In this document: positions 10,276 through 44,313 of the stretch, piece after piece
Layout of the letters: the number at the start of each line of letters is the position of its first letter
Numbering within the stretch: the first letter of the stretch is position 1
Origin: Clostridiales bacterium
GTDB lineage: Bacteria > Bacillota > Clostridia > Monoglobales > WRBX01
Assembly: GCA_031261985.1 (NCBI GenBank)
Contig: JAISIR010000011.1
Coordinates: 19,472-83,471, forward strand
Direction: 5' to 3'
Length of the DNA stretch: 64,000 bases
Program-made: the position numbers and the translations under genes
Notes under the pieces: generated by a model
Databases searched by the model: none
Told to the model about the DNA's origin: nothing
The model's input: the letters and a program-made list of their open reading frames with translations, nothing else

Positions 10276-10411
10276 TCTAGTTAATATTATTAATGTTTAA
10301 TAAACTAAGATGAAGTTGTTTAAAAGTAGTTTTAGATTAGCGCTAATTTGTTTATTTTCCCTGATATATAATATATCTTGGATACCCAAGAATGAAAGGA
10401 TGTAATCTGTT

Positions 10412-13400: not shown

Positions 13401-13483
13401 CTGGCACCGCTGATGAGTATAACTTTAGTATGCTAGTTGAAGAACTTGCTCCAGTTGTTCCTGAAGATCCTGTAATAGACTAA
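10412..13483 (+). CDS. Giant secreted surface protein (1023 aa) with a signal peptide, an N-proximal cohesin-like module, and a C-terminal beta-sandwich plus dockerin-like tail
   Basis: ATG with an AAAGGA SD. Signal peptide MSTLQSVKRRLTSIVTTGAMMLSMFAPLGYVNA|E. No terminator is visible between gene 2 and this gene, so they may be co-transcribed. Confidence 0.92.
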   Translation: MSTLQSVKRRLTSIVTTGAMMLSMFAPLGYVNAEGNNTLPIDAPLSAQAVSLTTTPNVEFKLVPLKDADGNIVETLDPTLNKTYIDKNHAPKKSDGTLDNVAAAAVEEGDGVEAKAATYDNTGVYDIEVSLKDIDNVFAFQLPLQFDPKTVQVDSVTLSDKFAAGGWELLPYSEGEFAPYVLSGASDSVIDLGTIDDAVQSDINADGKMVFSVVWSGADDANLDDDPKNADIGNNEGAGEKFFTVRITSNFTDSMTTEESLIEAAEDKADKDGTDFATAKDALALLASTYAEKRNDYYTELDKGVLADFETLKTNYGLFVTASKALDAARIANGYYPTTFAGRNMYAQEDANSIFAKADIISDDGTMVSYTNLSYNFEVEGSDTVKPMQVVEYNAGISIDTLGEATLADTTEYGIDQEAYDLLITKGKQLNKTYITTKVGDINDDGETIDEAGYEQILDWYVAVPEKVADDDDLDYNYRSLLFYDDGMYLSEDSDFAKEYGTIALETSGTSAIWEYTPGTHQGQIVLVAVAKGKHNTPKSNYEVQQAITLYGVGYSVSTSVGELALPTSEIGIRDVDGVRTGIIATSMLQESDDLIISTIGGAVAGDQTVETVDKTKYVSAGDSIPGATDDQAGVAGDDNEAFVSDEGPKTTYTLIKKGDGGTWTTETDAKTIVTDSEGDFGRGISLKSLLTTNKGAFLASDGTTPSTGVYKLIVTSDAGNANGYLTELSGVRTGMGVDDDTWTYTVYFELKEEGSIRGRVMLEGYDGRGLELGSLEAEGAFRKDVNVKLVRVPESQREMFESGEVSDDPYIGYDYTKDNEEIDIISSVKTDSTGYFTVFTRNNNDKVDYTDGNHYYLLFEARNLNYVYSGATGSEHDGNRMYLRKKIKLTNTIGDSDNDTQIDKNVFIGNLGQTDVNDIILYAGAFTDGEAITTESDYARIRAVVGKAVELEGDQGAKTLPAAYTYDDKDINLDAKVAPDDLAKVKKNVNERSYVAGTADEYNFSMLVEELAPVVPEDPVID
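10760..11170 (+). other. Cohesin-like module in giant protein 3
   Basis: GVYDIEVSLKDIDNVFAFQLPLQFDPKTVQVDSVTLSDKF ... EKFFTVRITSNF. This is the best match of the four to the classical cohesin pattern. Confidence 0.55.
13176..13387 (+). other. Dockerin-like tail of giant protein 3
   Basis: LYAGAFTDGEAITTESDYARIRAVVG ... DINLDAKVAPDDLAKVKKNVNE. Confidence 0.4.
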
Positions 13484-13503
13484 ATAATTTTAAGTGATAA
13501 TAC

Positions 13504-13537
13504 AAAAAGCGAGGTGCGCGAAACGCCTCGTTTTTTT
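13504..13537 (+). terminator. Rho-independent terminator after giant gene 3
   Basis: The stem cgaggtg/cgcctcg is extended by A-run/T-run pairing and followed by seven T residues (13531-13537). Confidence 0.8.
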
Positions 13538-13820
13538 GTACATTTTTTTAGTGTGAAAGGCGAGTTTTCCTCTATATTATGTAATGACGAGAAATATCAC
13601 AGACAAAATATTATGCAATGTTACAGAATCTTTACATTTTATGTATTTTTATGTTGCAATTTGCAATTTACTATAGACGAATGTGATAAGCATTTAGTAT
13701 AATAAGAATGTGGCGGTGTATCTATTTTTAAATGCTGCCCGAATATAGGAAATGCAAAAAAAGTGAGTTGTAAACAGGGAAAAAAGATAATTAGTTAATG
13801 ATTAATAAGAGGTGTTTGGT

Positions 13821-16800: not shown

Positions 16801-19391
16801 TTTTCGATTCAAACGGTGACGGAAAAGTGGATGACGTTATCGCGCCTTATGGTGAAAAGATATCTGAAGTTTTATTCTTTGATAGTAATGATGATGCAAA
16901 GAGCGACCAGATATTAGTAGATATTGATGGTGATGCTATTTATGATTATATCTTTATAGATGAAAATGCAGATTTAACGCCAGAAATCATCATTAAAGAT
17001 GATGGTGATGACACGACGGCCTTAATAGGTAAGGATGTCGATGCTGACGGAGTAATAGATGAGACTGATAGCATGCTTATAGAGGGCGCAGGCGGTGATG
17101 GCTTAAATGCGGATATCCCTAAAGAAATTTGGGTAGTCAAATATGGTGATGAGGACCCTGTTATAGATATCCCTGATGGATTTGTTGTTATTGATGTTGG
17201 TGTGATTGTAGAAGACCCAGAGAATCCTGGTGAGGAGATTGTAATTAAGCCAGACCCTCCAGCTGGTGAAGAGCCAGGCGATAATGTTGGTTTGGGGCAG
17301 ATGATTATAGATACTGTCTACCCAATTGCAGACATAAGTGGTATTTATAAGGGGACTACTCTAATTGACCTTCCTTTGCCTAATAGTGTTATGGTTAAAG
17401 TTGCTATTAAAAAGCGCGATTCTCTAATATATAGAAATTATAACATCGACATACTAGAGAATGGCTGGAGTGGAGAGCATGAGAGCGAGTATCCTTTGCC
17501 GCTGGGGACGTATACCTTTAAAGGTGCTTTAAAACTACAGGATAAATATTATAACCCAGATAATGTGTTAGCAAGTGTCAATGTAAATGTAGACTTGGTA
17601 AAAGATGAAGACCATACCGTTATACAAGACGTAGGCTCGAGTGCTATAGTATTAGACAATATTGTAGCGGACTTGAATGTTGAGCTAACGTTGACGGGTA
17701 TTAAAAACATGCAGAGCTACACGCGAAAAGCGACCATTCATTTTGTAGATGATGCGAATGACCTTGAAGCTATGCAGACGGTCGACACAGATGGCGATGG
17801 AATTGATGATATCGAGATATGGGAGCTTGTGCCAGAGAATAATGTGTATACTTACGACCCTACAGATTATCCGCCAGGGGTTGCCGAAACTTTAATTAGC
17901 GCGCGTATGTGGAAGACTAAAAAAGACAGTGTAGGCGAGGATTATGTTACACCACCAATTGAGATAGAAGTAGGGCGAGGCGCGATTTTTGTCAGCAAGA
18001 TTCCGGCTATTAACATCAGCGTAGTGGAGGGGACGAAGGTAAGGGATGTTAATAGAGCTCTTCCTAGTTCGATTGCTGCGACGGTTTCGATTTTAAAGAA
18101 TAATGTTAAGACGGAAGCAGAGCGAGCATTTAATGCTAATGCGTGGGTATGGCAAAATAATGCGTTAAACTTAAATGACACTACAGAGCTAGAGCCAGGG
18201 CAATATATAATAAATGGTGCTTTAGATTTGACTGATACGCTGGTAACTAATCCGCAGAATTTAAAGGTTATTGCAAACATCAATGTATCTGAAAAAGCCG
18301 AGCAGCCAGGTGAAATACCGACTGATGATATAAGTAAATTACGTCAGGGTAGGGTATATGTAACACTAGCTGCTAAGACCCATGATACGATTACTCTAAA
18401 CCCAGCGGAGGGCGGAACTGAAGGAGCAGGCGAGTTTGTATATGGTATTTCGACCCAAGAAGGCGTTCTTCCCGCAACATGGCAGAGCGGGACAGGGTTT
18501 ACAGGCTTGCAAGCTAGCACCACTTATTACCTTTATGCAAAGCGTTTAGGGAACGAAACATACAAGGAATCTTCACCTTCTAGCCAATTGGCGGTTACAA
18601 CTAATGTTCAGCCTGGTGGCGGCGGTGGCGGTGGTGGCGGCGGTGCTAGCCCTAGCCCAGATGTTTCGCCTAAGCCTACACCTACTTCATCTAGTAGTGG
18701 AGGCGGCGAACCTAGCCCAATTCCTAGCGTGAAGCCAATTGAAAACCCAGACCCTGATGATAAGTTGCCTTATTTAACTTGGTATGAACATAATAGTTAT
18801 GTATCTGGGCGTGATGATGGTTCGTTTGACCCACAAGGTGCTATAAAGCGCGAGGAAATGTCGGCTATGTTATTTAGGTTATTAACTGCTCATAGTGTAG
18901 CCAAGTTTGATACTAAGTTAACAAAATTTAAAGATTCTCAAAGGCGTTGGAGTGAGGAATCTATTGCTACAATGCAAACGGCTGGCATAGTTAAAGGGTA
19001 CGAAGACGGAACCTTTATGCCAGATAGGGCTATAACTCGTGCCGAGTTCGCTACTATGTTGACTCGTTTAGGTAATAGTACTCAAGCGGTAAATGGTAAA
19101 ACTATTTTAAGTGATATGGAAGGACATTGGGCTATAGATAGTATGAGCTATGTAATTCAGCGTGGTTGGATGTCTGGCTATGACGATGGTACCTTTAGGC
19201 CGAATAGTCCTGTTAATAGGGCAGAGGTTGTTGTTACTTTGAACAGGTTAATGCACAGGAATATGTCGCCTGAGTTTATTGATGCTTTGCCTGAATTGCC
19301 TACATTTAGTGACGTGCCAAAGGGGCATTGGGCTTACTATTATGTAATGTCAGCTGCGACGACGGTGTGCCTTAAGAATATTAGTTTATAG
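13821..19391 (+). CDS. SLH-anchored giant surface protein (about 1857 aa): signal peptide, cohesin-like module, Ig-like repeats, Asp-rich Ca-loop cluster, poly-Gly/PT linker and three SLH repeats. Candidate anchoring scaffoldin.
   Basis: The ATG at 13821 is preferred over the GTG at 13812 because the SD AAGAGGTG ends 6 nt upstream of it. Signal peptide MNPLKNVLAVRAISFVLTLGVVISSFTPVTLVSA|A. The C-terminus carries SLH signatures. Confidence 0.93.
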   Translation: MNPLKNVLAVRAISFVLTLGVVISSFTPVTLVSAAQDSSANPEAAPVVAAETGAAAAVDPVIAEYESYATYDPDLNAAEKNQILVDAYAVDGKTLNMADGTTYADKTPLAGMQNIGVGSIVRVTVALKDVERLGGANLPLSYNNSVATVVEKDTWLEAPNNISMEKNGGASLLNKYIFKGTLLGASDDKSYGYDLPTGEPARPFNESNLPEITNNDADLASSNWGKVSLSVEGRNGATTYFGDGPLDGDVVGTQSVYSVYFKIISEGEPSFKLLQRSDSVTPDQLTWLRTSNIDGTGNRVLSERVPVYISHETATLKVNNSTVSYNPEEYKVVSKTDAEDAKETNENVIVGDKYGLIPRADLEGLDGLSVYRINRAKWFCPDWDGDPQPSNFLSSASFGGVLLPRLKASYKPTVMDLPTVISRDNGETHDLYISELPETEESPGVYSADVEPILYTPNGTRLTLADIAGETFGRNSNGSWYIQNIPDSIFAQDELQQLSVAFKTPDDVLNTYSETDKVKAEEFFADGTMSAYVSQDEPFGTKVVNVDGDSLVSAKDKIAYLNIQAGAWLANRVKMLSFDINYDSAIRHNYMLAEKLGDAIEARADYELGSNSLKFSVYGINIDEVKTKYDVISIPFNIDKTNADPIFTLSGGEFCSSPTIEDVLMAGDITFGDVDFVIKNGEAKGSDEIFVIEEPASREVIIGDVPAGSKATITLKETESVAEKEVEVYFVGTQDEALTPSTDEKIYVYQPGGLIYVYKLPDGYDFVKVEVVTLETDGDGKIEQPEKEISDPTVIENKKEAVITLTEVNSIPDIVGLTSGVDADELLEMLPKEVGAKIEIATDDEKLMRDVKIKVASVIKSGLGKESGWYGTVGTLPIGAYDYVGVLALDSQVGNPNNLVANVRVKVEKTNPDDLTVIQDENGGEAVIGGTSDDEPTDLEVIVTDGTDEPKIKVHVVPIGRGDNGERFSVEKQGDKVVRIPVDIDKDGNSDFSLFDSNGDGKVDDVIAPYGEKISEVLFFDSNDDAKSDQILVDIDGDAIYDYIFIDENADLTPEIIIKDDGDDTTALIGKDVDADGVIDETDSMLIEGAGGDGLNADIPKEIWVVKYGDEDPVIDIPDGFVVIDVGVIVEDPENPGEEIVIKPDPPAGEEPGDNVGLGQMIIDTVYPIADISGIYKGTTLIDLPLPNSVMVKVAIKKRDSLIYRNYNIDILENGWSGEHESEYPLPLGTYTFKGALKLQDKYYNPDNVLASVNVNVDLVKDEDHTVIQDVGSSAIVLDNIVADLNVELTLTGIKNMQSYTRKATIHFVDDANDLEAMQTVDTDGDGIDDIEIWELVPENNVYTYDPTDYPPGVAETLISARMWKTKKDSVGEDYVTPPIEIEVGRGAIFVSKIPAINISVVEGTKVRDVNRALPSSIAATVSILKNNVKTEAERAFNANAWVWQNNALNLNDTTELEPGQYIINGALDLTDTLVTNPQNLKVIANINVSEKAEQPGEIPTDDISKLRQGRVYVTLAAKTHDTITLNPAEGGTEGAGEFVYGISTQEGVLPATWQSGTGFTGLQASTTYYLYAKRLGNETYKESSPSSQLAVTTNVQPGGGGGGGGGGASPSPDVSPKPTPTSSSSGGGEPSPIPSVKPIENPDPDDKLPYLTWYEHNSYVSGRDDGSFDPQGAIKREEMSAMLFRLLTAHSVAKFDTKLTKFKDSQRRWSEESIATMQTAGIVKGYEDGTFMPDRAITRAEFATMLTRLGNSTQAVNGKTILSDMEGHWAIDSMSYVIQRGWMSGYDDGTFRPNSPVNRAEVVVTLNRLMHRNMSPEFIDALPELPTFSDVPKGHWAYYYVMSAATTVCLKNISL
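14140..14640 (+). other. Cohesin-like module in the SLH protein
   Basis: GVGSIVRVTVALKDVERLGGANLPLSYNNSVATVVEKD ... SVYSVYFKIISEGEPSF. Confidence 0.45.
16768..17070 (+). other. Cluster of Asp-rich calcium-binding-type loops
   Basis: DIDKDGNSDFSLFDSNGDGKVDDV ... FFDSNDDAKSDQILVDIDGDAIYDY ... KDVDADGVIDETD. These are repeated DxDxDG / DxNxDG loops. Confidence 0.5.
18766..19370 (+). other. Three S-layer homology (SLH) repeats
   Basis: ...GRDDGSFDPQGAIKREEMSAMLFRLL; FKDSQRRWSEESIATMQTAGIVKGYEDGTFMPDRAITRAEFATMLTRL; LSDMEGHWAIDSMSYVIQRGWMSGYDDGTFRPNSPVNRAEVVVTLNRL; trailing FSDVPKGHWAYYYV. They are preceded by G11 and a P/T/S linker (18606-18760). Confidence 0.85.
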
Positions 19392-21199: not shown

Positions 21200-22288
21200 C
21201 TAATAATCTGCATCTTGTATTTTTTGATACCTATACATAAATCCGTCGCTGAACACAAGGTAGATAATGGTACCGTCGTCGCTAAAATAACTATTTATAG
21301 CTTTATCGCCGCTAATGGCAATCTTAAGCAACTCGTCAAAACTGGTTACCTTAACCTGGATAACCTTACGCGCATCTGGCATTGATTGCAATTTAACAAT
21401 GTTTCTGCCATAGTGACGCTCTATCATTTTATCTTCGTTATATTTATTTTCTTTTTTAGTACTTTTGCCGCCCTTGCGTTTTAGGCTTTTAACGCCAACG
21501 ATGATAACACAAGTTGCACTTGCAATTATTATGCACATAAGGAAGGTTGCGCCTAAAGGTAGGCTGCGAGAGGTTTTTGCACCTTCATCTAATGCAATGG
21601 TAGGTGCGCCAGAATATGTTACGCTATACACCTCGTTGGTTAAAGGTATGGTAACGGTGCGTGAAAGAGTTTTGTTTAAGTTATTTTTAGCGTTAACAAA
21701 AGTATATTCAAAGGTTAAGACTAATTGGGCTGAGAAGCTAGGGCTGCGGCTAAAAATAAGGTTACGATTTTTAATCATTTTACTTTCTTCTTGTAAAAAC
21801 GAGTTATATGTTTTAATAAATTGGTATGGGTCGATGCTATAAGAACCGCCAGGCTCGGCGCCATGGTTAGGTTTAAAGCTAAAATCTTTACCGTTGGCGG
21901 TTTGAGTTACGGTTTTAAGCGGATAAACGACATTTAATACTTGAGTAGGGGTTGTAGAGTTGCCGCTATCGTAATTTATAATTAAATTTTGGTATGCGTT
22001 GTAAGAATAAGTAACATCCATAGCTTTATCGAGATTTAAATTTAAGCTGTCATTAACTTGTATATAATCGGTATAGCTAAGTAAGTAAGAGCCTTTGATA
22101 TTATCTTGAATTTTATTTTGTGTGAAGGATGTGTTGGGCTTATAAACTACATTATGACCAACTGTTTGTGTTGCGGTACCTTTAACTGATTGCGTGTTAA
22201 ATAAGAACATGTAGCTAAACGCCAATGTTAATGTGGTAATTATTAATAAAAACGATATAGCAATGGAAAGAATCGTTTTTTTCCTCAT
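21200..22288 (-). CDS. Bitopic membrane protein, last gene of the fibre operon (362 aa). N-terminal anchor, about 230-aa extracytoplasmic domain, second TM, about 95-aa cytoplasmic tail. Possibly DUF5305-like.
   Basis: TM1 is ILSIAISFLLIITTLTLAF and TM2 is LPLGATFLMCIIIASATCVIIVGV, followed by the basic stretch KSLKRKGGKSTKK. The gene is on the same strand as, and 57 nt downstream of, the peptidase gene. The DUF5305 assignment is from memory of operon context and is untested. Confidence 0.85.
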   Translation of the reverse strand: MRKKTILSIAISFLLIITTLTLAFSYMFLFNTQSVKGTATQTVGHNVVYKPNTSFTQNKIQDNIKGSYLLSYTDYIQVNDSLNLNLDKAMDVTYSYNAYQNLIINYDSGNSTTPTQVLNVVYPLKTVTQTANGKDFSFKPNHGAEPGGSYSIDPYQFIKTYNSFLQEESKMIKNRNLIFSRSPSFSAQLVLTFEYTFVNAKNNLNKTLSRTVTIPLTNEVYSVTYSGAPTIALDEGAKTSRSLPLGATFLMCIIIASATCVIIVGVKSLKRKGGKSTKKENKYNEDKMIERHYGRNIVKLQSMPDARKVIQVKVTSFDELLKIAISGDKAINSYFSDDGTIIYLVFSDGFMYRYQKIQDADY

Positions 22289-22345
22289 AAGCCACGCATT
22301 CTCCTAATTTAAATTAAGTAACCGCTGAACTTAAAAACTTGTTGA

Positions 22346-23542
22346 TTAAAACTGTTGTAGCATAATTGTGGGGTAGCCTATCAATGGTATATGGGCAGAA
22401 GCTATGCCCAAAATTTTGTCTTTTGTGACTGGCTCGGTATCGGCTTTTGGATTATTATCGCCTTTGGTAATATATAGTGTTTCGCCATTTTCGTTTCCAG
22501 TTATTTCTATTACTCGGTGTATAACTTCTGTTTTACCCTTAGAGTAATCTATTACATCGCCTACTTGGACGTAGCCTTCAATTTTTTTAGGGTTAATTTT
22601 TTTGATAAACACAAGTGCTCCACGTGATATTGCGGGTTTCATACTATTACTTGCCACCGCGGCAGGGAAGTATGGTAGTGACTTTGTTGCGAACAAAACC
22701 ACAAGTAAAATTATGCTTAACGATATTACGCTGCTTCGTATTGGGTGTTTTACCTCCCAACGCATGCCATGACGGCGTGCGCGAGATTTGCGGCGCATTA
22801 TCCTAGGAGTAAATAAAAACTTATTATATAAAAAGTAGATGACAAATAGTGAAAGGTAAATTACAATCGCCCAAAGTATTCTTTTTACATTTGGTAAAAT
22901 AGGCGATAAAATTGAGGTTAAGGTAAATATAATGTTTAAAATTATACACCCAAGAGGCACGCTATAGCTTGCAATTGGTATTAGTATAATGTTTAGTATA
23001 AGGTTAGGCATTACCGAGGTTATAATGTAATCTACTCTCTGTTGCGTAGCGTATCCAATAAACGACGAAAGGGTTTCGGCGCGGATAAAGGTGAAAACAA
23101 CGACGATTACTGAATAGAGAACCGCACGTTGGTTAAAAGTATATTGCTTTGATGTTTTAACAAGGTATACTCTAAAATATTCTTGTGCTATTACAAAAGG
23201 TACATACACCCAAATATTGTTAAGCCATACATTAAAGCTTGGCGTAGTTGCATTTGCACCTGCTCCAAAAATGAGTATGCAAATAAATAGAGCAAAGTAG
23301 TAAATAATTGCGCTACATATAGCCAAAATAATGCTGTCGTAGCCTTTTAGCTCGGTTGTATCGTGGTGCAATTTAAGCGATAAAAATACAACCAAACCTG
23401 TTATATATACAAGCGGGCGGATTATTAATAAATATATATTATTTGCATCAGGTGGCAAAAAAATGGAAAACAGATGAAATATTGCCATGAATGCTAATAT
23501 TAAATATTTGGTTCTTAATCTATCCATGCTTATAACGTCCAA
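22346..23542 (-). CDS. Fusion protein (398 aa): about 8-TM N-terminal domain plus a SipW/Sec11-type (S26B) signal peptidase I
   Basis: The C-terminal 125 aa read AVASNSMKPAISRGALVFIKK ... GDVIDY ... VIHRVIEI ... YITKGDNNPKADTEPV. The catalytic Ser codon is at 22643-22645, His at 22517-22519, and the GDNN box is typical of SipW/archaeal/ER-type peptidases. The N-terminal 270 aa contain 8 hydrophobic helices, then the basic loop RRKSRARRHGMRWEVKH, then the peptidase's own anchor helix. Confidence 0.85.
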   Translation of the reverse strand: MDVISMDRLRTKYLILAFMAIFHLFSIFLPPDANNIYLLIIRPLVYITGLVVFLSLKLHHDTTELKGYDSIILAICSAIIYYFALFICILIFGAGANATTPSFNVWLNNIWVYVPFVIAQEYFRVYLVKTSKQYTFNQRAVLYSVIVVVFTFIRAETLSSFIGYATQQRVDYIITSVMPNLILNIILIPIASYSVPLGCIILNIIFTLTSILSPILPNVKRILWAIVIYLSLFVIYFLYNKFLFTPRIMRRKSRARRHGMRWEVKHPIRSSVISLSIILLVVLFATKSLPYFPAAVASNSMKPAISRGALVFIKKINPKKIEGYVQVGDVIDYSKGKTEVIHRVIEITGNENGETLYITKGDNNPKADTEPVTKDKILGIASAHIPLIGYPTIMLQQF

Positions 23543-24291
23543 TTAAAATTCGGAGCGATATCCGAAGTGAAAATTATTTTAAATACAATATTATTCTCGT
23601 GATTTTGGGCATTCTCGGTATAATAATAAGGCAAGTAAAACTCTAACGCGTCGGTAACACTTGGGTCGATTTTACCTTTAAAGTTAAGTGTAAGCCTGCC
23701 GTTAGAATCGGCATAAATATAATCGGCAGCTGTGATATTGTACTTAGAGTTAAATAGCGAGTTAGGGCTGCCATTGGGTGCGGAAAACTGTGTATTTATA
23801 ACGCCGTCGCCAATTGTTTTGGTAAACTTGTCGGCGGGGGTAAGTGCCCATACATCTTTAGTTGGGTTGGTAATAACAAAGTTTAGAGATAAATCGCCAG
23901 CTTTACTTATAGCTGATTTTTTATCTAGCGTTAGATAAAAGGTATTACCTTGCCAATATTGGTTTAATACTTTAAGCCCGTCTAGTTCGGGCTCGATAGG
24001 CACAAAGACTATTCCTTTGCTAGTGGTTGCCGTTATACTTTGGCTAGAAGACTCTGCTATGGGTTCATCGATAGATTCGTCTAATGCAATAAGTGAATCG
24101 CCCTGTTCTTCCTCGGTTGGTTCTTCTTCTACAAAGTCGACGCCTTCGGCTAGCATAACAATAGGTGTAGATGCGGATTCTGGAACAGAAGCCGCACCTT
24201 CAAAACCCATTGCATATTCTTGAGAGGCATATACCACGCCGACACATAATATGAATATGGCGTACGACCATAACATTACTTGCTTAAGCAT
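23530..24291 (-). CDS. Secreted TasA-like accessory protein (253 aa); TapA-like role is hypothetical
   Basis: Signal peptide MLKQVMLWSYAIFILCVGVVYA|S, then an acidic linker (EEEPTEEEQGD), then a beta-rich domain with AGDLSLNFVITNPTKDVW, similar to the PGD...F.v.N.G box of the two upstream subunits. Its stop overlaps the peptidase start by 13 nt, indicating translational coupling. Confidence 0.85.
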   Translation of the reverse strand: MLKQVMLWSYAIFILCVGVVYASQEYAMGFEGAASVPESASTPIVMLAEGVDFVEEEPTEEEQGDSLIALDESIDEPIAESSSQSITATTSKGIVFVPIEPELDGLKVLNQYWQGNTFYLTLDKKSAISKAGDLSLNFVITNPTKDVWALTPADKFTKTIGDGVINTQFSAPNGSPNSLFNSKYNITAADYIYADSNGRLTLNFKGKIDPSVTDALEFYLPYYYTENAQNHENNIVFKIIFTSDIAPNFNWTL

Positions 24292-24331
24292 AGAAATACC
24301 TCCTGAAAAATTAAATTTTAATTAACAATTT

Positions 24332-24429
24332 GTCATTCCGCGCTTGACGCGGAATCTATACGCAATGTCGGAATTGATTGATATCATTCTTAATTAGCGT
24401 GTAGATTGCGGGTCGGAGCCCGCAATGAC
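24332..24429. repeat. Inverted pair of family C hairpin repeats inside the operon
   Basis: gtcattccgcgcttgacgcggaatctatacgc (24332-24363) and gcgtgtagattgcgggtcggagcccgcaatgac (24397-24429, inverted orientation). They lie in the 167-nt gap between the subunit genes and the accessory genes. Confidence 0.8.
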
Positions 24430-24458
24430 GGACTTTAGATATAGCTTTTTTGGCTAAA

Positions 24459-24968
24459 TTACACGCCTTGTGCAGATGTTGCCTCGTAGTCTATTTGAAT
24501 TGAGAATGTGTTAGCACCTGTTTTTACAGCTAACTCTTCTGCTGGCCATGTTAGAACAACGGTTTTACCGTCTATGCTAGCGCCTTTTGCAATTGCTTGA
24601 CCTTCTAGCTCGGTGTACGTGCCTGTTACTTCGATATCGTCGTTATTTGTTACTGTAATGTCGGTAATAGTAGCAGATGCGTTACCTACGTTGTCTACAT
24701 TAAAAGTTACGTAAGCTGTGTCGCCTGGCTCTTCCATTGTTGCTGTAAGTGTTAAAGTGTTGTTTTCGTTAGATATAACAGCTGAGCTAATGATAGCTTC
24801 GTCGCTGCTAACGGCGTCAGTAATGTCTAGGTTAATGTTCTCAGAAACTGTCGTTGTACCGGTAATGGTTAAATAGCCAGATGTTACGGCGTAAACTATC
24901 CCTGCAAGTGCTAGTAAAGCAATGATCGCAAGAATAATAGCGGTGGTTTTTCTTTTTGAGTTTGTCAT
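24459..24968 (-). CDS. TasA/camelysin-like fibre subunit candidate 2 (169 aa)
   Basis: N-terminus MTNSKRKTTAIILAIIALLALAGIVYAVTSGYLTITGTTTV. The internal box EPGDTAYVTFNVDNVGNASATI matches, from memory, B. subtilis TasA LKPGDKLTKDFQFENNGSLAIKEV and B. cereus CalY LKPGDSVKKEFLLQNSGSLTIKDV. SGYLTI can be compared with TasA ASGTLDL. Confidence 0.85.
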   Translation of the reverse strand: MTNSKRKTTAIILAIIALLALAGIVYAVTSGYLTITGTTTVSENINLDITDAVSSDEAIISSAVISNENNTLTLTATMEEPGDTAYVTFNVDNVGNASATITDITVTNNDDIEVTGTYTELEGQAIAKGASIDGKTVVLTWPAEELAVKTGANTFSIQIDYEATSAQGV

Positions 24969-25041
24969 TTAAAAACTCTCCTTTTTAAAAAAATATTTAT
25001 AATATAAAATTATACGAAGTAATGATAATGCGGATTTACCT

Positions 25042-25551
25042 TTAATCTGCCTGTGTATAAGGTATGGTAACGCTAAAGGTATAATCGCCGCCAGGGATTT
25101 CTGTGTCGTTAATCCAAGTTATATCGATGGCTTCGTTATCGCGAGTTTCTCCTGGTGCAATTGTAATCGGCAATTGATATGCGTTATCGTTAAAACTTGT
25201 TTTAATGTTAACGGTGTTAGGTGGGAAGTCGCTAGTTATGGTTCCTGTAGTAGAAATAACTGCCGAGACGGAACCAACATTTTCTATTGTAAAAGGAATG
25301 TGAAAGGTACGCGCGGCAGAGAAATCGATATCGAAGGTAATGGTATCGCCATTTCCGCTAATTTCGTAAGGAACTCTATTACCCCAAGTGTTATACTCTG
25401 CAGGGATGCCGAGGTCTAAATCTAATGATGAGGCGACGCTGGCGGTACCACCTAATTGTAGATTGCCTGAAAGGGCAGCATAAGCCACGCCGGTGATGGC
25501 GAATATTACTAAAAATACAAGAATAACTGTAGCATCTATTCGTCTTTTCAA
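25042..25551 (-). CDS. TasA/camelysin-like fibre subunit candidate 1 (169 aa), paralog of 24459..24968
   Basis: TTG start with a GAGGTG SD. N-terminus MKRRIDATVILVFLVIFAITGVAYAALSGNLQLGGTASV. Internal box FHIPFTIENVGSVSAVIS. It has the same length and the same motif order as the paralog. Confidence 0.85.
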   Translation of the reverse strand: MKRRIDATVILVFLVIFAITGVAYAALSGNLQLGGTASVASSLDLDLGIPAEYNTWGNRVPYEISGNGDTITFDIDFSAARTFHIPFTIENVGSVSAVISTTGTITSDFPPNTVNIKTSFNDNAYQLPITIAPGETRDNEAIDITWINDTEIPGGDYTFSVTIPYTQAD

Positions 25552-27338: not shown

Positions 27339-28724
27339 CTACATCGTTAATGTTCCATCTTCGCTTTCAATTAACACTAAAATTTTGCGTTCGGCGCCAG
27401 TTAGGGCATCGATATACACCAAGTAATTATGGTCGGCGACGTTGCCTCTAATTTCGTAACACAAAAGCTCGGTGCCAGAATCGTCGGGGATAACGGCTAG
27501 CTTAATATTATCTATCTTCAAATCGCTTGACATTTTGGCGCGAGCATCTTCTTGCGTTAGAATAGGTGTGGCAAGGCTACGCTGATAATGATTCATTATA
27601 TAGCTGTGTGCTTCATAGCCGATTATTCCGCCATCGTCTAGTGCTACCCTAACTTTAATAAGGTCGGGGTAATAGGTTACTTGCTCGTATTTATAGGCAA
27701 AATTAACCAAAACGGTATTGTTTTGCACCTCAAAATAAGTTGGAGCCATGCCGATTATGCCGCTGGAATCTAAAAATTCTTGCGCTTTAATCTCGGCTTG
27801 CTCGGCGTTTAAATTAGCGTTTTCGCTGGTGCGATTATCTAGAACCATTAGAACCTCGCCGCCGCGTTTGGTGACTGTTGCGCTAATCTCTCGCGCGTCA
27901 TCGTCGGGCAAGGTAATATCGAAGGAGTAGGCAGGGATAGAGCCTGCGACCTCGCTGCCTAGGGTAATGGTTACATCGTTATTAAGGCGCATGAAGGCGC
28001 GCAATTTAGCTTCTGCCTCGGCGACGCTTACATCGGCTTTATCCTTAATAAATATAGCCTCGCGACCATACATGTGTTGAGAGAATGGGCCGTCGTAAAT
28101 TAGGCTTGGATAATTAGAGAATTCTGCTTGGAGTTTTTCCATCTCGGAATTAAAAGTAGGGCTTTGGCTATTGGCAGAGGCGCTTGCTTTTTTTGTATCG
28201 CCAAAGTGGATGACGCCGCTGGCTAATTCGCTTTCTATTTGCTGCACGCTTGTATTTATGGTAGTAGAGTAATCTGCCAAAGTTTTAAGGCTGGCTCTAT
28301 CCTCATCGCTTAAATATTCACCAGATGATACCTTGCGTGATAGGCTATAGGTGTAATCGCCCACTTGAGTTAGGTATTTAGCGATATTCTCGGTGTCGAC
28401 GCTATTTAAGGGGAGTTGCCCTAGCGAGCTTTGTGCGAAGGCGGCGTTGCGAAACAGCTCGACGGACAGGGCGGATAATTGTTTAGGGTCGCGGCTTAGC
28501 ATGACTTTAGCAAGAGAGGTATCGACGTTGTTTATATAATCGGACATCTCGAAAAAAGCGCGTTGGTAATTACTTTCGGCTAGGTTTTTGTAATCGACGC
28601 TACGTTTATATTGGTATATAGCAATGGCAGAAATTATAGCTAGAACAATTAATGTAGCACTATATATATGCCTATCTTGAAGTTTAGATTTAAAGTCTAT
28701 TAATTTTTGACGAAACTTAGTCAT
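27339..28724 (-). CDS. ypeB: Spore germination protein YpeB
   Basis: N-terminal TM, then NYQRAFFEMSDYINNVDTSLAKVMLSRDPKQLSALSVELFRNAAFAQSSLGQLPL, which matches the conserved YpeB N-domain. PepSY-type repeats follow at the C-terminus. The gene lies directly downstream of sleB. Confidence 0.85.
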   Translation of the reverse strand: MTKFRQKLIDFKSKLQDRHIYSATLIVLAIISAIAIYQYKRSVDYKNLAESNYQRAFFEMSDYINNVDTSLAKVMLSRDPKQLSALSVELFRNAAFAQSSLGQLPLNSVDTENIAKYLTQVGDYTYSLSRKVSSGEYLSDEDRASLKTLADYSTTINTSVQQIESELASGVIHFGDTKKASASANSQSPTFNSEMEKLQAEFSNYPSLIYDGPFSQHMYGREAIFIKDKADVSVAEAEAKLRAFMRLNNDVTITLGSEVAGSIPAYSFDITLPDDDAREISATVTKRGGEVLMVLDNRTSENANLNAEQAEIKAQEFLDSSGIIGMAPTYFEVQNNTVLVNFAYKYEQVTYYPDLIKVRVALDDGGIIGYEAHSYIMNHYQRSLATPILTQEDARAKMSSDLKIDNIKLAVIPDDSGTELLCYEIRGNVADHNYLVYIDALTGAERKILVLIESEDGTLTM

Positions 28725-28756
28725 GTTTTAAATGCTCCTTTTTATATTATTCAAAT

Positions 28757-29224
28757 TTATATAGCAAAGTTGTGCTTACCTATTGTTAGCTGAATCTGGC
28801 GGGACCATATCCAACTACTTGTAGCAGTTGAGGGATTATAGTAATAAATGCAACCATTAGTTGGGTCGCTGCCTGCCATTGCTTCGGCGCAGGCTTTATA
28901 TATGCTACTGTTCTCGTCTATGGGGACGTTAATTTGACCATCGCTGACGGCGGTGAAAGCACCTGGCTGATATATAACGCCAGAGATAGTGTTGGGGAAT
29001 GATGCGTGTTTAACACGATTTAGAATAACAGCTGCGACGGCTACCTGACCTTTATATGGCTCGCCGCGCGCCTCGCCATTTACGCAGCGGGCTAGCAATT
29101 GGGTATCGTTGTTAGAGCTAGAATTGCTTGCCGAGATATTATCGGTTGATAGTGATAAAAGGCTTATGAACAGGGCAAGAGCTGCAAAGCAACAAAGGGT
29201 TTTTAAGTAAATATTTTTGTTCAT
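28757..29224 (-). CDS. sleB: Spore cortex-lytic enzyme / cell wall hydrolase of the SleB family
   Basis: LLARCVNGEARGEPYKGQVAVAAVILNRVKHASFPNTISGVIYQPGAFTAVSDG is the Hydrolase_2 signature. The start is set at ATG 29224 (GGAG upstream, signal peptide MNKNIYLKTLCCFAALALFISLL) rather than at 29251. Confidence 0.85.
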   Translation of the reverse strand: MNKNIYLKTLCCFAALALFISLLSLSTDNISASNSSSNNDTQLLARCVNGEARGEPYKGQVAVAAVILNRVKHASFPNTISGVIYQPGAFTAVSDGQINVPIDENSSIYKACAEAMAGSDPTNGCIYYYNPSTATSSWIWSRQIQLTIGKHNFAI

Positions 29225-29344
29225 AGTTGTAAGAGTCACTCCAATATTCATGTAAATTTAACCAATTTAAGTTATTTTTGTCAGAATTAAAAAAATTTAT
29301 TCATAACTATTGACATTTTTAGTAAAATATAGTAACATGGATTA

Positions 29345-40642: not shown

Positions 40643-43600
40643 TTAGTTAAAAAAAGATATTTGGTTACTCTCGTCCATACCGTCTAGGCAGCCATGCTCG
40701 CGGAATAGTTCTATAACAGTTTTGTTTACTTTGCCGCGAATGCGTAAATCTTCTATGCTACTAAAGGGTTCTTCGTTGCGTGCGGCAACGATGCTTTCGG
40801 CTGCGCTGCCGCCTAAACCTGCAAAGGCATTAAGCGGAAGGCGAATGGCACCGTCTTCGGGTAAGAACTTTTTACTATCCGATTTATAAAGGTCTATAGG
40901 TAAAAATTTAAAGCCGCGGGCGAACATCTCTCTAACTAATTGGCAGATGGTAAGGACGTTTTTATCTTTAGCGTTAAGAGTGTTCTCTTGAGGTTCGAGT
41001 GTTCGGATAGTATTATTTAGTTTTAAAGGTGTAGCCATAAGGTTAGCATCAAACTCGTCGGCGCGGACGGTTAAGTAGGTAAGGTAGAAAGCCAATGGGT
41101 AGTGCACCTTAAACCAAGCTATTTTAAATGCCATAGTGACATATGCAACGGCGTGGGCTTTAGGGAACATGTACTGAATTTTATTGCAGCTATCTATATA
41201 CCATTGTGGAACATTATATATTTTCATTAGTTCTTCGTCATCGGGGGTTAACTGTTTACCTTTACGCACACGCTCCATAATATCGAAGGCATTTTTGGCA
41301 GGCAAACCTTTATGAAGTAAGAAGAGCATGATATCATCGCGAGTACATATACAATCTTTAAGCGGGACGATGCCATCTTTTATAAGCTGCTGCGCGTTAT
41401 TAAGCCAAACGTTGGTGCCATGAGATAGCCCAGATATGCGGACCAGCTCGGAAAAAGTAGTGGGCTGGGTATCCATCAGCATTTGACGGACGAATTTAGT
41501 GCCAAACTCGGGCACGCCTAGCGAGCCAATTTCGCTATTAATGCTTTCTGGCTCGATATTTAGGGCAAGGGTAGATGTAAACAGGCTCATGGTTTCGGGG
41601 TCGTCAATGGGTATAGTTTTAGCCGAGACACCGGTTAAATCTTCTAGCATACGAATAACGGTAGGGTCGTCATGACCTAGGATATCGAGTTTAAGCAGGC
41701 GGCCGCTGATAGAATGATAATCGAAGTGAGTGGTAAATACGTTTTTATCCTTATCGTCGGCAGGATGTTGAAATGGAGTGAATTCGTGGATATCGCGACC
41801 TTTAGGCACGACCATAACGCCGCCTGGATGTTGACCCGTGGTGCGTTTTATGCCTGTGCAGCCTGCAACTAATTGATTGATGCGTGCGCTATTTGTAATT
41901 ATATTACGTGCTTCGAGATATTTTTTAACAAAGCCATAGGCTGTTTTAGATGCGATGGTGGCAATGGTACCTGCGCGGAAAATATAGCCTTCGCCGAATA
42001 ATTCCTCGACAAATTTATGGGCGGTAGATTGATAATCGCCACTGAAGTTTAAGTCGATATCGGGTTCCTTATCGCCTTCAAAGCCTAAAAAGGTTTCAAA
42101 GGGGATATCGTGACCGTCTTTTTGAAGTGGCCTGCAGCAATGAGGGCATTCTTTATTAGGCATATCCACACCAGATGAGTAGGTGCCATCGGTTATAAAC
42201 TCGCTATAGTTACAATGAGGGCAAATATAGTGTGGAGGAAGGGCGTTAACCTCGGTAATTCCGCATAAAAAGGCGATGAAAGATGAACCGACAGAGCCAC
42301 GCGAGCCTACAAGGTAGCCATCGGAATTAGATTTTTGGACTAATTTTTGTGCGATGTAATACATCACCGAGAAGCCATATTTTATAATTTTTTCTAGTTC
42401 TTTATCAATGCGTTTTTGGACAATATCGGGGAGCGGGTCGCCATAGATTTGCTTAGCCTTCGCCTTGCTTCCGTCGACGATTGCCTCGATACTACCGTCT
42501 AGCTCTGGTGGGCAAGTTTCGTCGGGGATTGGTTTAATTTTGTCTATACTATCGGCGATTTTTTGAGGGTTATGTATAACAATTTTTTCGGCAACATCTG
42601 GTGGTAGATAATTAAACTCGTCTAGCATTTCTTTAGTAGTGCGGAAGTAAAGTGGGGCTTGGTTGTCGGCGTCTGAATATCCGATGCCCGCTTGCAGAAT
42701 GGCGCGGAATTGGCTATCGGCTTTATCCATAAAATGAACGTCGCCAGTGGCAACAACAAGCTTACCCATTTTATCGCCTAGGGCGATTATTTTTTTATTA
42801 ATCTCTTTTAATTGGTTAATAGTAGCCGTGCCATTTTCGACCATGAACTTATTGTTGCCAAGTGGCATGACTTCAAAATAATCGTAGAAGCTAGCAATTT
42901 CCTCGATTTTACTTTGGGGCATGTCGTCTAATATAGCGCGATAAAGCTCGCCAAGCTCGCAGGCAGAGCCGATTATCAGTCCATCGCGGTGCTGGGTTAG
43001 GATATTGCGAGGGATTCTAGGTTTTTTATAGAAGTTTTGAGTATGCGAATAAGTAATAAGCTTATACAAATTTTGCAGCCCGACATAGTTTTTTGCAAGA
43101 ATAATGATATGATTGCTTGCTTGTTTAGAGCCTACTTCGATATCTGACTCGGGCAGTTGGGTTAAATACCCTTCGACGCCATAGATTATTTTGAAGTCGT
43201 CGGGTGCATTTTTAGCAGCAATATGTGCATCAGGGAAGGCTTGGACAACGCCATGGTCGGTAATTGCGACGGCTTTATGACCCCAATATATTGCGCGAGA
43301 GACTAAATCTTTTACATTTGACACGCCGTCCATAGAACTCATTTTAGTATGCAGGTGAAGTTCGACGCGTTTGTTTTCTGCCATGTCTTGACGCACGGGA
43401 GGGGTAGGGATTTCTTTGATTCCTGTGATATTTACAACCGTCTCGCGAGAGTATTTATCGTATTGCGCATCACCACAAGCGCGGAACGATTTACCCATTT
43501 TTAGCTTGCCGTCGAGGTCGTTCTTTTTTGCGGTGGCGGTGGATAGCTTGATTTTGCAGCTTATGGCGGTATTGTCAATCCCTGCGATATCGAACTTATA

Positions 43601-44068
43601 AAGCATTGTGCCGGCAAAAATTTCGCGTTTATCGGGCTTTGCAAACAGTTTACCTTCAAAAATGCAACTCCCGGTCATATCGGTGATTTGACCACAAGAG
43701 ACAGCATTGCCCTCTTTTAATGAGCCATAAATGCAATCGCCTGTTGTAGGAGTTTCGCCTGACGAGGTGCGCTTGTAACCGCCGCCATTGTTACGTCTGT
43801 AATTGTTGCCGCCACCGCCTGCGCCACCACCATAGCCGCCATAACCACCATTGCCACCATTGCCATAGCCGCTTTTGCCACCATATTTGCTGCCATAGTT
43901 GCTACCGCCATAGTTTTGAGAGTTGTATCCGCCACCAAAACTATCGTAATTGGGGCTATAGTTTTTATTGCCATAGCCATTTGAACCCTCGCGTTTGGGC
44001 GAGGGTTTGTATGAAGGGAATAGATTTCGTTCTTGTTCTTTTTTATAATTATCGTAAGTGGTAGACAA
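40643..44068 (-). CDS. polC: DNA polymerase III alpha subunit, PolC-type. Atypical: 1141 aa, no exonuclease insertion, low-complexity N-terminus.
   Basis: OB domain, PHP motif VELHLHTKMSSMDG ... ITDHGVVQAFP, Zn module CPHC...CPHC, and palm/fingers motifs GSRGSVGSS and PDIDLNF. TTG start with a GGAGG SD 7 nt upstream. Confidence 0.9.
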   Translation of the reverse strand: MSTTYDNYKKEQERNLFPSYKPSPKREGSNGYGNKNYSPNYDSFGGGYNSQNYGGSNYGSKYGGKSGYGNGGNGGYGGYGGGAGGGGNNYRRNNGGGYKRTSSGETPTTGDCIYGSLKEGNAVSCGQITDMTGSCIFEGKLFAKPDKREIFAGTMLYKFDIAGIDNTAISCKIKLSTATAKKNDLDGKLKMGKSFRACGDAQYDKYSRETVVNITGIKEIPTPPVRQDMAENKRVELHLHTKMSSMDGVSNVKDLVSRAIYWGHKAVAITDHGVVQAFPDAHIAAKNAPDDFKIIYGVEGYLTQLPESDIEVGSKQASNHIIILAKNYVGLQNLYKLITYSHTQNFYKKPRIPRNILTQHRDGLIIGSACELGELYRAILDDMPQSKIEEIASFYDYFEVMPLGNNKFMVENGTATINQLKEINKKIIALGDKMGKLVVATGDVHFMDKADSQFRAILQAGIGYSDADNQAPLYFRTTKEMLDEFNYLPPDVAEKIVIHNPQKIADSIDKIKPIPDETCPPELDGSIEAIVDGSKAKAKQIYGDPLPDIVQKRIDKELEKIIKYGFSVMYYIAQKLVQKSNSDGYLVGSRGSVGSSFIAFLCGITEVNALPPHYICPHCNYSEFITDGTYSSGVDMPNKECPHCCRPLQKDGHDIPFETFLGFEGDKEPDIDLNFSGDYQSTAHKFVEELFGEGYIFRAGTIATIASKTAYGFVKKYLEARNIITNSARINQLVAGCTGIKRTTGQHPGGVMVVPKGRDIHEFTPFQHPADDKDKNVFTTHFDYHSISGRLLKLDILGHDDPTVIRMLEDLTGVSAKTIPIDDPETMSLFTSTLALNIEPESINSEIGSLGVPEFGTKFVRQMLMDTQPTTFSELVRISGLSHGTNVWLNNAQQLIKDGIVPLKDCICTRDDIMLFLLHKGLPAKNAFDIMERVRKGKQLTPDDEELMKIYNVPQWYIDSCNKIQYMFPKAHAVAYVTMAFKIAWFKVHYPLAFYLTYLTVRADEFDANLMATPLKLNNTIRTLEPQENTLNAKDKNVLTICQLVREMFARGFKFLPIDLYKSDSKKFLPEDGAIRLPLNAFAGLGGSAAESIVAARNEEPFSSIEDLRIRGKVNKTVIELFREHGCLDGMDESNQISFFN

Positions 44069-44154
44069 AATTAAACCTCCGGATAAGGCAAGTAATAAAA
44101 GATGAATGAAAAATGATAAATTAAGGCAATAAATTTTCGCTAACGCTCGAGTTT

Positions 44155-44313
44155 AATCGTTTTCATCGCCGTCGCCATCATCGTCATCTATATGCTTGCT
44201 GTAAATAGGGCAAGAGACATAGCTAGAAGTATCGCACATGCCTTCGATTTTGCTTTCGAGTAGGCGGCGACCAGAAATTTCACAAAATATATCATCAAGA
44301 TAAGGGCACATAA
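44155..44313 (-). CDS. Small Cys-rich protein with a poly-acidic tail (52 aa). Below the ORF-track size cut-off.
   Basis: Translation by hand gives MCPYLDDIFCEISGRRLLESKIEGMCDTSSYVSCPIYSKHIDDDDGDGDEND. An AAGGA SD lies about 10 nt upstream. It is on the same strand as polC, 86 nt upstream of it. Confidence 0.4.

Follow-up and report, generated by a model that had tools for sequence, protein, structure and literature searches.

How does a polymerase of the PolC type edit its products if the proofreading exonuclease that is an integral part of most of its relatives is missing? This question is raised by a gene in a 64-kb stretch of DNA (the window) taken from a contig of a metagenome-assembled genome (MAG) of a Clostridiales bacterium.

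A PolC-type polymerase from the Clostridia

The product of the open reading frame (ORF) is identical to NCBI entry MDR0930905.1, "PolC-type DNA polymerase III [Clostridiales bacterium]". It scores above the equivalog threshold of TIGR01405 (1377.6 bits; cut-off 1043.45) and above that of NF001688, the NCBIfam PolC equivalog (1477.4 bits; cut-off 873). The latter model matches in two stretches, the second of which joins query residues 314-1140 to model positions 610-1444. Pfam detects the PHP, DNA_pol3_alpha, finger, and HHH_6 families in the ORF, and the parts are arranged as in other PolCs (Table 1). Specifically, OB strands at residues 133-220 precede the PHP domain, which begins at residue 236, and the HHH_6 region and the NQISFF motif close the protein. 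The OB domain thus sits N-terminal to PHP, as the PolC type requires, and there is no C-terminal OB domain or CTD. Although the OB domain is not detected by Pfam, Foldseek matches this region to the OB folds of SSB and aaRS proteins.

The residues expected of a working enzyme are also in place. The catalytic residues D670 and D672 (in PDIDLNF) and D795 lie in invariant alignment columns, the GSRGSVGSS motif is found at residue 588, and the four zinc-module cysteines (C616, C619, C641, and C644) are invariant across 42 PolCs. Furthermore, the position of NQISFF agrees with that of the clamp motif described for PolC (PMC3919608). An AlphaFold2 (AF2) model of the protein has a mean pLDDT of 82.6. 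From these features, the window PolC is predicted to be an active, clamp-dependent polymerase.

The TTG start codon is backed by a conserved N-terminal motif, Y-x-x-[YF]-K-x-E-Q-E, also found in relatives whose starts lie one to three residues earlier. Housekeeping genes flank polC on both sides. One flank holds pnp, divIC, and genes for an M23 peptidase and for an OmpR-type regulator; the other holds hprK, murB, rapZ, purD, and lon. A small Cys-rich ORF upstream of polC has no Pfam match and no homologue in any of 80 fetched loci. The spore genes ypeB and sleB are also present in the window. The closest homologues of the protein come from Clostridia MAGs and from Acetivibrio and Caloramator. 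Judged by its sequence, the ORF is a chromosomal gene that encodes the alpha subunit of a PolC-type DNA polymerase III, and its host is an uncultured member of the Clostridia that forms spores.

Table 1. Features of the polC locus, with coordinates in the window
Feature	Coordinates	Strand	Basis
polC ORF, 1141 aa	40643..44068	(-)	TTG start; stop codon 40643-40645; ORF call, PolC family and PDB alignment
Shine-Dalgarno sequence GGAGG	44076..44080	(-)	7 nt upstream of the TTG start; read from the sequence
N-terminal helix, residues 2-15, TTYDNYKKEQERN	44024..44065	(-)	DSSP on AF2 model; N-terminus alignment
Low-complexity linker, residues 29-103	43760..43984	(-)	28 G, 13 N, 12 Y, and 9 S out of 75; predicted disordered
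OB-fold domain, about residues 112-222	43403..43735	(-)	beta-strands 133-220 (AF2); 3F2B OB alignment from query residue 148
PHP domain, about residues 236-470	42659..43363	(-)	Pfam PF02811 at residues 236-395; nine metal ligands
Site of the absent exonuclease, residues 294-327	43088..43189	(-)	strand IIYGVEGY, 19-residue loop LTQLPESDIEVGSKQASNH, strand IIILAKN
Pol III alpha core (palm, thumb, fingers), about residues 500-1045	40934..42571	(-)	Pfam PF07733 and PF17657
PolC-specific zinc module, CPHC (616-619)...CPHC (641-644)	42137..42223	(-)	motif positions
Tandem helix-hairpin-helix, residues 1052-1134	40667..40915	(-)	Pfam PF14579 HHH_6, E 1.6e-15
C-terminal beta-clamp-binding motif NQISFF, residues 1135-1140	40649..40666	(-)	Q1136 invariant; F1140 at least 90% conserved

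The integral exonuclease is absent

The original prediction, that the DEDDh exonuclease normally inserted in the PHP domain is missing from this PolC, is borne out by every approach taken. When 120 homologues are aligned with MAFFT, 101 PolCs have 208-215 aa between the two strands that bracket the insertion, whereas the other 19 have 11-42 aa; the query has 19 aa. The coordinates initially proposed for the junction (about nt 43095-43200) are close to those found (43088-43189), but the loop is somewhat shorter than the 22 residues first given. In the AF2 model, strands 293-303 and 319-325 are linked by this short loop, with no inserted domain. Likewise, the alignment of the query with a full-length PolC (9qpc) stops at residue 430 of that chain and picks up again at 610, and its alignment with a PolC structure from which Exo was removed (3F2B) matches that chain end to end.

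A hidden or divergent Exo domain was considered and rejected. Pfam finds neither RNase_T (PF00929) nor any other exonuclease family in the ORF even at E<=1, and regular expressions for the motifs D.E[TS][TS]G, H.A..D, [FVIL]D.ET, and N..FD give zero matches in it. An HMM trained on the Exo domains of 101 PolCs likewise finds no such domain in the ORF, and a fold search with the AF2 model returns no exonuclease fold.

The N-terminal domain is also missing

The same prediction held that all other PolC hallmarks are intact. This is true of the polymerase, PHP, zinc, HhH, and clamp motifs, but the claim as a whole is wrong because the N-terminal domain (NTD; NI and NII, about 190 aa) is absent as well. 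Residues 1-235 give no Pfam match at E<=1, whereas protein P0039 yields NI, NII, and OB in the same run. The NTD is physically absent from six close relatives too, in which only 154-176 aa lie ahead of PHP. According to the N-terminus alignment, the helix at residues 2-15 is the counterpart of a linker helix that full-length PolCs have after their NTD.

The place of the lost domain is occupied by the G/N/Y/S-rich linker, which holds short 9/18-nt tandem repeats at 43826-43865 and falls within a region (residues 13-109) where the AF2 pLDDT is <50. Its Gly/Asn/Tyr/Ser low complexity resembles that of the disordered linkers of bacterial SSBs. An unrelated exo-less PolC, encoded in a genome of 4.9 Mb, has an analogous G/S/N/W-rich segment in this place.

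Repeated loss of the exonuclease among clostridial PolCs

PolCs of this kind are not new. In 2014, Timinskas et al. described PolCs without the Exo insertion, which made up 6% of the total and came exclusively from Clostridia or Negativicutes that also carry DnaE1 (PMC3919608); these proteins were accepted as PolCs on phylogenetic grounds. The window protein, in which Exo is absent and which carries a Clostridiales label at NCBI, is a further example of this clostridial type. The original prediction correctly described a PolC-type polymerase without a DnaQ-type exonuclease and listed sensible options for proofreading, but the architecture is not unusual and had already been catalogued.

The survey of relatives shows how often this architecture recurs. 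Exo-less PolCs number 56 among 191 sequences; the architecture is seen in 19 of the 120 best database matches and in 37 of the 71 species-representative loci, the latter being those of the 80 fetched loci with a polC complete enough to score. Of the best-matching representatives of clusters formed at 50% identity, 150 in number, 29 align in one stretch over the junction. In a neighbor-joining tree of the 191 PolCs, the exo-less proteins split into nine separate clades, and Fitch parsimony gives 7-10 state changes in all 53 bootstrap replicates; these counts are those of neighbor-joining rather than maximum likelihood trees. A single origin is rejected by this range, which holds in every replicate, and by the fact that the two largest clades never merged. 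At least seven independent losses of Exo are indicated. The query belongs to a 12-member exo-less clade, recovered in 43 of the 53 replicates, whose sister group consists of exo-containing clostridial PolCs. In six related genomes, the Exo domain is kept and all five of its catalytic residues are lost.

Within that one 12-member clade, a series of losses can be traced from Exo to NII to NI. It is tempting to view the lineage as the end point of a stepwise minimization of PolC, with PHP left as the sole proofreader on the enzyme and the linker having taken over replisome tethering from the NTD. As a complete account, this seems very doubtful to us.

Probable editing in cis by the PHP domain

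The nine metal ligands of the PHP site are all present in the window PolC (H238, H240, D247, H272, E299, H320, C370, D443, and H445; the counterparts in Geobacillus kaustophilus (Gka) PolC are H346, H348, D355, H380, E405, H620, C670, N743, and H745; Barros 2013, Table 1). The full set, HHDHEHCDH, is found in 56 of 56 exo-less PolCs and in all six with a dead Exo domain. However, the same nine residues are kept in 101 of 101 Exo-containing clostridial PolCs, so that their retention cannot be read as a response made specifically to the loss of Exo. A search for convergent compensatory substitutions among the independent exo-less clades gave only four weak positions (541, 668, 694, and 1109), none in the PHP site. 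The PHP domain of clostridial PolCs has been classed as "active" (PMC12926913), and we found no measurement in the literature of exonuclease activity for the PHP domain of any PolC.

Genetic evidence comes from Clostridium thermocellum, in which the PolC mutation C669Y increases the mutation rate by a factor of 30 or more although the Exo domain is intact (bioRxiv 10.1101/2021.07.30.454558). The altered residue is the PHP metal-ligand cysteine equivalent to C370 of the query, although its effect could have a structural rather than a catalytic cause. Because the nine ligands are intact in the query and in the 56 exo-less relatives, and because this ligand mutant is a mutator, we infer that 3′-5′ editing is most likely carried out in cis by the PHP domain.

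The overall picture is as follows. The DnaQ-type (DEDDh) exonuclease inserted in PHP has been lost in a known subgroup of clostridial PolCs, to which the window protein belongs, and the lineage represented in the window has lost the N-terminal domain in addition. The remainder (short helix, disordered linker, OB, PHP, Pol3 core, HhH, and clamp motif) corresponds to the engineered PolC-deltaN-deltaExo form that is fast in vitro. Its PHP domain would edit 3′-5′ in cis, much as the PHP domains of Mycobacterium tuberculosis DnaE1 and Thermus Pol III do. Perhaps Exo was expendable in Clostridia because PolC there, like the co-resident DnaE1, retained an active-type PHP site. Taken as a whole, the reading of this protein as an exo-less clostridial PolC that has also lost its NTD, is an active polymerase, and edits in cis through PHP is in our judgment probably correct.

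Alternatively, the window PolC might function without any editing, either in a reduced or accessory role while DnaE1, which has its own PHP proofreader, replicates most of the genome, or at a lower fidelity that is tolerated with mismatch repair as a backup. The accessory option was raised by Timinskas et al. for bacteria with both PolC and DnaE1; some Clostridia have DnaE1 only, and exo-less PolCs occur only in PolC+DnaE1 systems (PMC3919608). Clostridial PolC is reported always alongside a DnaE1 with an intact PHP site, and the shares of PolC and DnaE1 in bulk synthesis are debated in the literature. For this reason, the earlier statement that the protein looks like "the functional replicase" cannot be deduced from the window. 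Furthermore, the lost N-terminal domain is the proposed tether of PolC to the clamp loader, such that a reduced or specialized role could follow, and the six genomes with a catalytically dead Exo, together with the NTD loss, are consistent with a relaxed need for PolC-borne DnaQ editing. Regardless, the residues of the polymerase, zinc, HhH, and clamp motifs are as conserved as in full-length PolCs, and the nine PHP ligands are kept in 62 of 62 Exo-deleted or Exo-dead proteins across those independent losses, a pattern that one would not expect if the gene were decaying or the site served no purpose. In addition, because C669Y alone makes C. thermocellum a mutator, PolC contributes substantially to genome synthesis in that relative. 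We therefore regard a PolC without editing as unlikely.

Another possibility is editing in trans, in which a DnaQ-like exonuclease of the epsilon type, the product of a separate gene, would bind to the window PolC in the way that epsilon binds to E. coli DnaE. Bacterial proteomes contain more than three stand-alone DnaQ homologues on average (PMC12926913), and our search for one covered 64 kb of the genome. Among the window ORFs of 40 aa or more, none matches the PolC Exo HMM at E<=10, even though this HMM detects E. coli DnaQ at E=3e-29. Moreover, in the 80 fetched loci the HMM matches polC ORFs only, so that no DnaQ-like neighbor lies beside an exo-less polC. C. thermocellum, a relative with PolC and DnaE1, is reported to lack an epsilon subunit (bioRxiv 10.1101/2021.07.30.454558), and published surveys name no canonical DnaQ as the partner of PolC in Clostridia. 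Editing in trans is thus quite improbable. An HMM derived from PolC likewise found no second C-family polymerase, DnaE included, in the window, and none lies next to the exo-less polC genes of the 80 fetched loci.

Finally, although the window comes from a MAG contig, it is extremely improbable that the absence of the domain stems from faulty assembly or annotation (a collapsed region or a pseudogene), because the architecture is shared by 56 independent assemblies, including the 4.9-Mb complete chromosome OW818693.1, with the deletion at the same structural position and with differing loops of 11-42 aa; the junction is also in frame within an 1141-codon ORF bearing a Shine-Dalgarno site, and the closest relatives, at 59-63% identity, share the deletion.

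Because exo-less PolCs were catalogued in 2014, the window PolC alone adds little. What makes it useful is that it shows the minimal PolC-deltaN-deltaExo architecture cleanly in a natural protein. Along with the repeated independent losses and the dead-Exo variants of related genomes, it supports the view that Clostridia can do without the DnaQ-type editor of PolC, and exo-less PolCs offer test cases both for proofreading by the PolC PHP domain and for the division of labor between PolC and DnaE1 in bacteria that have both. These proteins are also relevant to PolC-targeted antibiotics and to estimates of mutation rate in gut and rumen Clostridia.

Comparison with known polymerases

Relative to canonical PolCs (Bacillus/Geobacillus type; 9qpc), the window protein is 53-66% identical over the common domains, with identical catalytic, zinc, and clamp motifs, but it is without the DEDDh exonuclease (about 195 aa) and without NI and NII. 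Bacillus PolCs in our set read HHDHEHCNH, with N at PHP position 8, in contrast to the full HHDHEHCDH of the window PolC.

With the exo-less PolCs of Clostridia and Negativicutes (PMC3919608), it shares the OB, PHP, Pol3, and HhH parts, the absence of Exo, and a conserved PHP metal site. That study treats undetected N-terminal domains as probably diverged, whereas the NTD is physically absent here and a 75-aa low-complexity insert is carried instead.

The complete nine-residue trinuclear PHP site and the lack of an integral DnaQ domain are also features of M. tuberculosis DnaE1 and Thermus Pol III alpha. These, however, are DnaE-type enzymes of another lineage, with a C-terminal OB domain and about 20% identity, and it is for them, and not for any PolC, that PHP exonuclease activity has been demonstrated.

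Another counterpart is the engineered G. kaustophilus PolC-deltaN-deltaExo (PDB 3F2B/3F2C), which has the same domain content and order. The AF2 model superposes on 3F2B with a TM score (target) of 0.93 and an rmsd of 2.9 Å, and the alignment is continuous over query residues 148-1140, with a natural loop where the construct has an artificial GSGSG linker. PHP position 8 is D in the window PolC and N743 in the Gka construct. The window protein, known here from its sequence, is natural and keeps a native N-terminal helix and a disordered linker. The corresponding Staphylococcus aureus construct, Sau-PolC-deltaN-deltaExo, polymerizes at 330 s^-1 (PMC3656037). As modeled, the window PolC is a natural copy of the engineered PolC-deltaN-deltaExo.

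Absence of the exonuclease domain

As the original prediction had claimed, the window PolC lacks the built-in DEDDh-type 3′-5′ exonuclease (Exo) that is inserted in the PHP domain of canonical PolCs. Its Pfam matches are PHP (residues 236-395), DNA_pol3_alpha, the finger domain, and HHH_6, and neither RNase_T nor any other exonuclease family is matched even at E≤1. Against the NCBIfam PolC equivalog NF001688, the protein reaches 1477 bits (cut-off 873) in a split match, with residues 314-1140 corresponding to model positions 610-1444. Similarly, alignment to the full-length PolC 9qpc breaks at chain residue 430 and resumes at 610. Alignment to 3F2B, a comparison that had been proposed earlier, runs in one piece over residues 148-1140. 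3F2B is a crystallization construct of Geobacillus kaustophilus PolC that was made without the N-terminal and Exo domains.

When the best 120 database homologues were aligned with the window protein, the segment from the YG.E strand to the (I/V)(I/V)L(A/V)KN strand spanned 208-215 residues in 101 proteins and 11-42 in the 19 that are exo-less. The window PolC has 19 residues here (LTQLPESDIEVGSKQASNH), which corrects a slight miscount of 22, and the deletion had been placed (about nt 43095-43200) near the measured junction. A motif search agreed with the earlier reading that the whole ORF is free of DEDDh-type motifs. In an AlphaFold2 model (mean pLDDT 82.6, pTM 0.75), strands 293-303 and 319-325 are connected through a short loop. 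This model superimposes on 3F2B with a TM-score of 0.93 (normalized to the target) and an rmsd of 2.9 Å, and a fold search with it matched no exonuclease fold.

Genomic context

The protein is 100% identical to the NCBI entry MDR0930905.1, "PolC-type DNA polymerase III [Clostridiales bacterium]", which derives from an 89-kb MAG contig. Its gene is flanked by housekeeping genes. In a 42-sequence alignment, the catalytic residues D670, D672, and D795, the four zinc cysteines, GSRGSVGSS, and the clamp-motif glutamine Q1136 all fall in invariant columns. Furthermore, the in-frame Exo deletion recurs with differing loop sequences in 56 independent assemblies, one of which is a complete 4.9-Mb chromosome. 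Given these observations, an assembly artefact or a pseudogene is very unlikely.

Features of the window
Feature	Position (nt)	Strand	Details
Four consecutive giant ORFs	32-19391	plus	1952, 1353, 1023, 1859 aa
Gene cluster	21200-25551	minus	DUF5305 protein, weak signal-peptidase S26 match, 253-aa ORF, two adjacent 169-aa ORFs
ypeB and SleB-type cell-wall hydrolase	27339-29251	minus	YPEB_N, PepSY; Hydrolase_2
polC neighbors, one side			pnp, S1-domain gene, divIC, M23/LysM/G5 peptidase, OmpR-type regulator
polC neighbors, other side			hprK (39 nt downstream), murB, rapZ, purD, lon
polC ORF	40643-44068	minus	1141 codons, TTG start
Exo-loss junction	43088-43189
Low-complexity segment in place of N-terminal domain	43760-43984	minus	75 residues (29-103): 28 Gly, 13 Asn, 12 Tyr, 9 Ser
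Conserved short helix, PolC N-terminus			residues 2-15
polC ribosome-binding site			GGAGG, 7 nt upstream of the TTG start
52-codon ORF	44153-44311	minus	between response-regulator gene and polC; AAGGA-type ribosome-binding site

Several other genes were also noted. The peptide encoded by the 52-codon ORF (MCPYLDDIFCEISGRRLLESKIEGMCDTSSYVSCPIYSKHIDDDDGDGDEND) is rich in Cys, ends in an acidic tail, and has no Pfam match and no homologue among the 80 fetched loci. The giant ORFs presumably encode cell-surface proteins; the first three have no Pfam matches, and the fourth matches only C-terminal S-layer homology (SLH) repeats. The 21200-25551 cluster, whose 253-aa and 169-aa ORFs are without Pfam matches, recalls SipW-type dedicated signal-peptidase/secreted-fiber operons in its gene layout. 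The spore-cortex lysis genes ypeB and sleB-type hydrolase indicate that the organism is an endospore former.

Loss of the N-terminal domain

It had also been proposed that all other PolC hallmarks are intact. This holds for the polymerase, zinc, GSRGSVGSS, and clamp features, but the N-terminal domain (NTD, made of NI and NII) is missing. Only 235 residues precede PHP, compared to a median of 337 in full-length PolCs and 154-176 in the closest relatives. Residues 1-235 have no Pfam match at E≤1, while the same run yields NI, NII, and OB in the long N-terminus of P0039, which is an exo-less relative. Thus, the NTD is absent. A low-complexity segment takes its place, and disorder is predicted there (pLDDT <50 over residues 13-109 of the AlphaFold2 model). 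The OB fold that follows has no Pfam match and is supported by structure and the 3F2B alignment.

Because both NTD and Exo are absent, the window PolC is a naturally occurring counterpart of the engineered PolC-deltaN-deltaExo, whose Staphylococcus aureus version polymerizes at 330 s^-1 (PMC3656037). Replacement of the lost NTD by a low-complexity segment is a small novelty. A G/S/N/W-rich run (GNSGGWGGGSGKSGGSAGGGSSWNGGNGGGGNGWNGGNGG) occupies the same NTD-OB linker position in P0078 (L081:10001-13903), an unrelated exo-less PolC on the 4.9-Mb chromosome OW818693.1; among 191 PolCs, only P0115 is otherwise weakly similar.

Prevalence and evolution of exo-less PolCs

The exo-less architecture has already been described, and the window protein is a further example (Timinskas et al., PMC3919608). 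Those authors found that exo-less proteins, 6% of PolCs, are confined, bar one extra Thermotogae copy, to Clostridia and Negativicutes, in which PolC coexists with DnaE1; for PolC+DnaE1 systems, the share in their summary table is 16%. Our counts are consistent with theirs. The proposed survey of relatives revealed exo-less PolCs in 37 of 71 GTDB species-representative loci (80 fetched, 71 with polC complete enough to score), many from MAGs of ruminant-gut Clostridia and Oscillospiraceae. Among the best 150 cluster representatives at 50% identity, 29 align over the junction without a break.

On a neighbor-joining tree (191 PolCs, 878 core columns, Bacillus root), the 56 exo-less PolCs form nine clades. 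Parsimony requires 7-10 changes in Exo state in each of the 53 bootstrap replicates, none of which joins the two largest exo-less clades. The clade of the window PolC (43/53 replicates) has 12 exo-less members and an Exo-containing sister group. Within it, P0008 and P0012 keep only a weak NI-like subdomain, and P0009 (no NI match) and P0019 (outside the Pfam scan) have N-termini of similar length. The whole NTD is lost in a seven-member group (43/53 replicates) comprising the window PolC, P0002-P0006, and L001. These differences suggest a stepwise reduction.

Six species-representative Clostridia MAGs (L045, L060, L062, L064, L065, and L068; e.g., L062:1365-5600) encode a PolC with a full-length Exo insert (209-232 aa) in which all five DEDDh catalytic residues are replaced (SRTTE, TRTTE, CRTSE, or DKKSN; DEDHD in 129 other PolCs). 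Their nine PHP ligands are intact. These proteins are arguably more novel than the exo-less PolC of the window.

Candidate sources of proofreading

The window PolC has the full set of nine PHP metal ligands (H238, H240, D247, H272, E299, H320, C370, D443, and H445). In 3F2D, their G. kaustophilus counterparts (H346, H348, D355, H380, E405, H620, C670, N743, and H745) bind one Zn and two Mn ions (Barros et al. 2013, Table 1). The HHDHEHCDH set is retained in 56/56 exo-less PolCs, and sites of this kind are classed as "active" in a 2026 survey of bacterial polymerases, which gives three candidate proofreaders as usual for Clostridia: the PHP of PolC, that of DnaE1, and the DnaQ of PolC (PMC12926913). 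The most direct support for PHP editing is genetic. In Clostridium thermocellum, a PolC+DnaE1 organism reportedly without an epsilon subunit, PolC C669Y alone increases the mutation rate by a factor of at least 30 with Exo intact (bioRxiv 10.1101/2021.07.30.454558). C669 is the PHP ligand cysteine and aligns with C370 of the window PolC, although its mutator effect could be structural rather than catalytic. Because 101/101 Exo-containing clostridial PolCs share the same nine residues, PHP-site conservation is an ancestral trait and did not arise in response to the loss of Exo. A search for substitutions common to independent exo-less clades yielded nothing convincing, and our literature search found no measured exonuclease activity of a PolC PHP domain.

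Position 8 of the PHP site is Asn (HHDHEHCNH) in 7/7 Bacillus-type PolCs (Bacillus/Neobacillus loci L056, L059, L061, L063, L067, L069, and L079), as is G. kaustophilus N743, and Asp in 183/184 non-Bacillus PolCs of the set, including all 56 exo-less proteins. L070 differs at position 4 only (HHDKEHCDH).

It is unlikely, in our estimation, that PolC is instead reduced to a non-editing or accessory polymerase and that DnaE1 is the main replicase. This idea was put forward by Timinskas et al. (PMC3919608), and the NTD loss fits it. However, the PHP site and all polymerase and clamp features are strictly kept through many independent losses, and the C. thermocellum mutator phenotype also argues against decay. 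No second C-family polymerase is encoded within the 64-kb window. Slightly more doubtful still is editing in trans by a separately encoded DnaQ. An HMM built from 101 PolC Exo domains, which detects E. coli DnaQ at E=3e-29 in the same search space, matches nothing at E≤10 among all window ORFs of at least 40 aa, nor, at the fetched loci, anything next to an exo-less polC gene. These negatives weaken the idea, with the window being a small part of the genome.

Given the intact ligands, the "active" class, and the C669Y mutator, we favor the view that 3′-5′ editing would probably be performed in cis by the PHP domain of the window PolC itself. Such an arrangement would resemble that of Mycobacterium tuberculosis DnaE1 and Thermus Pol III, where PHP editing has been shown.
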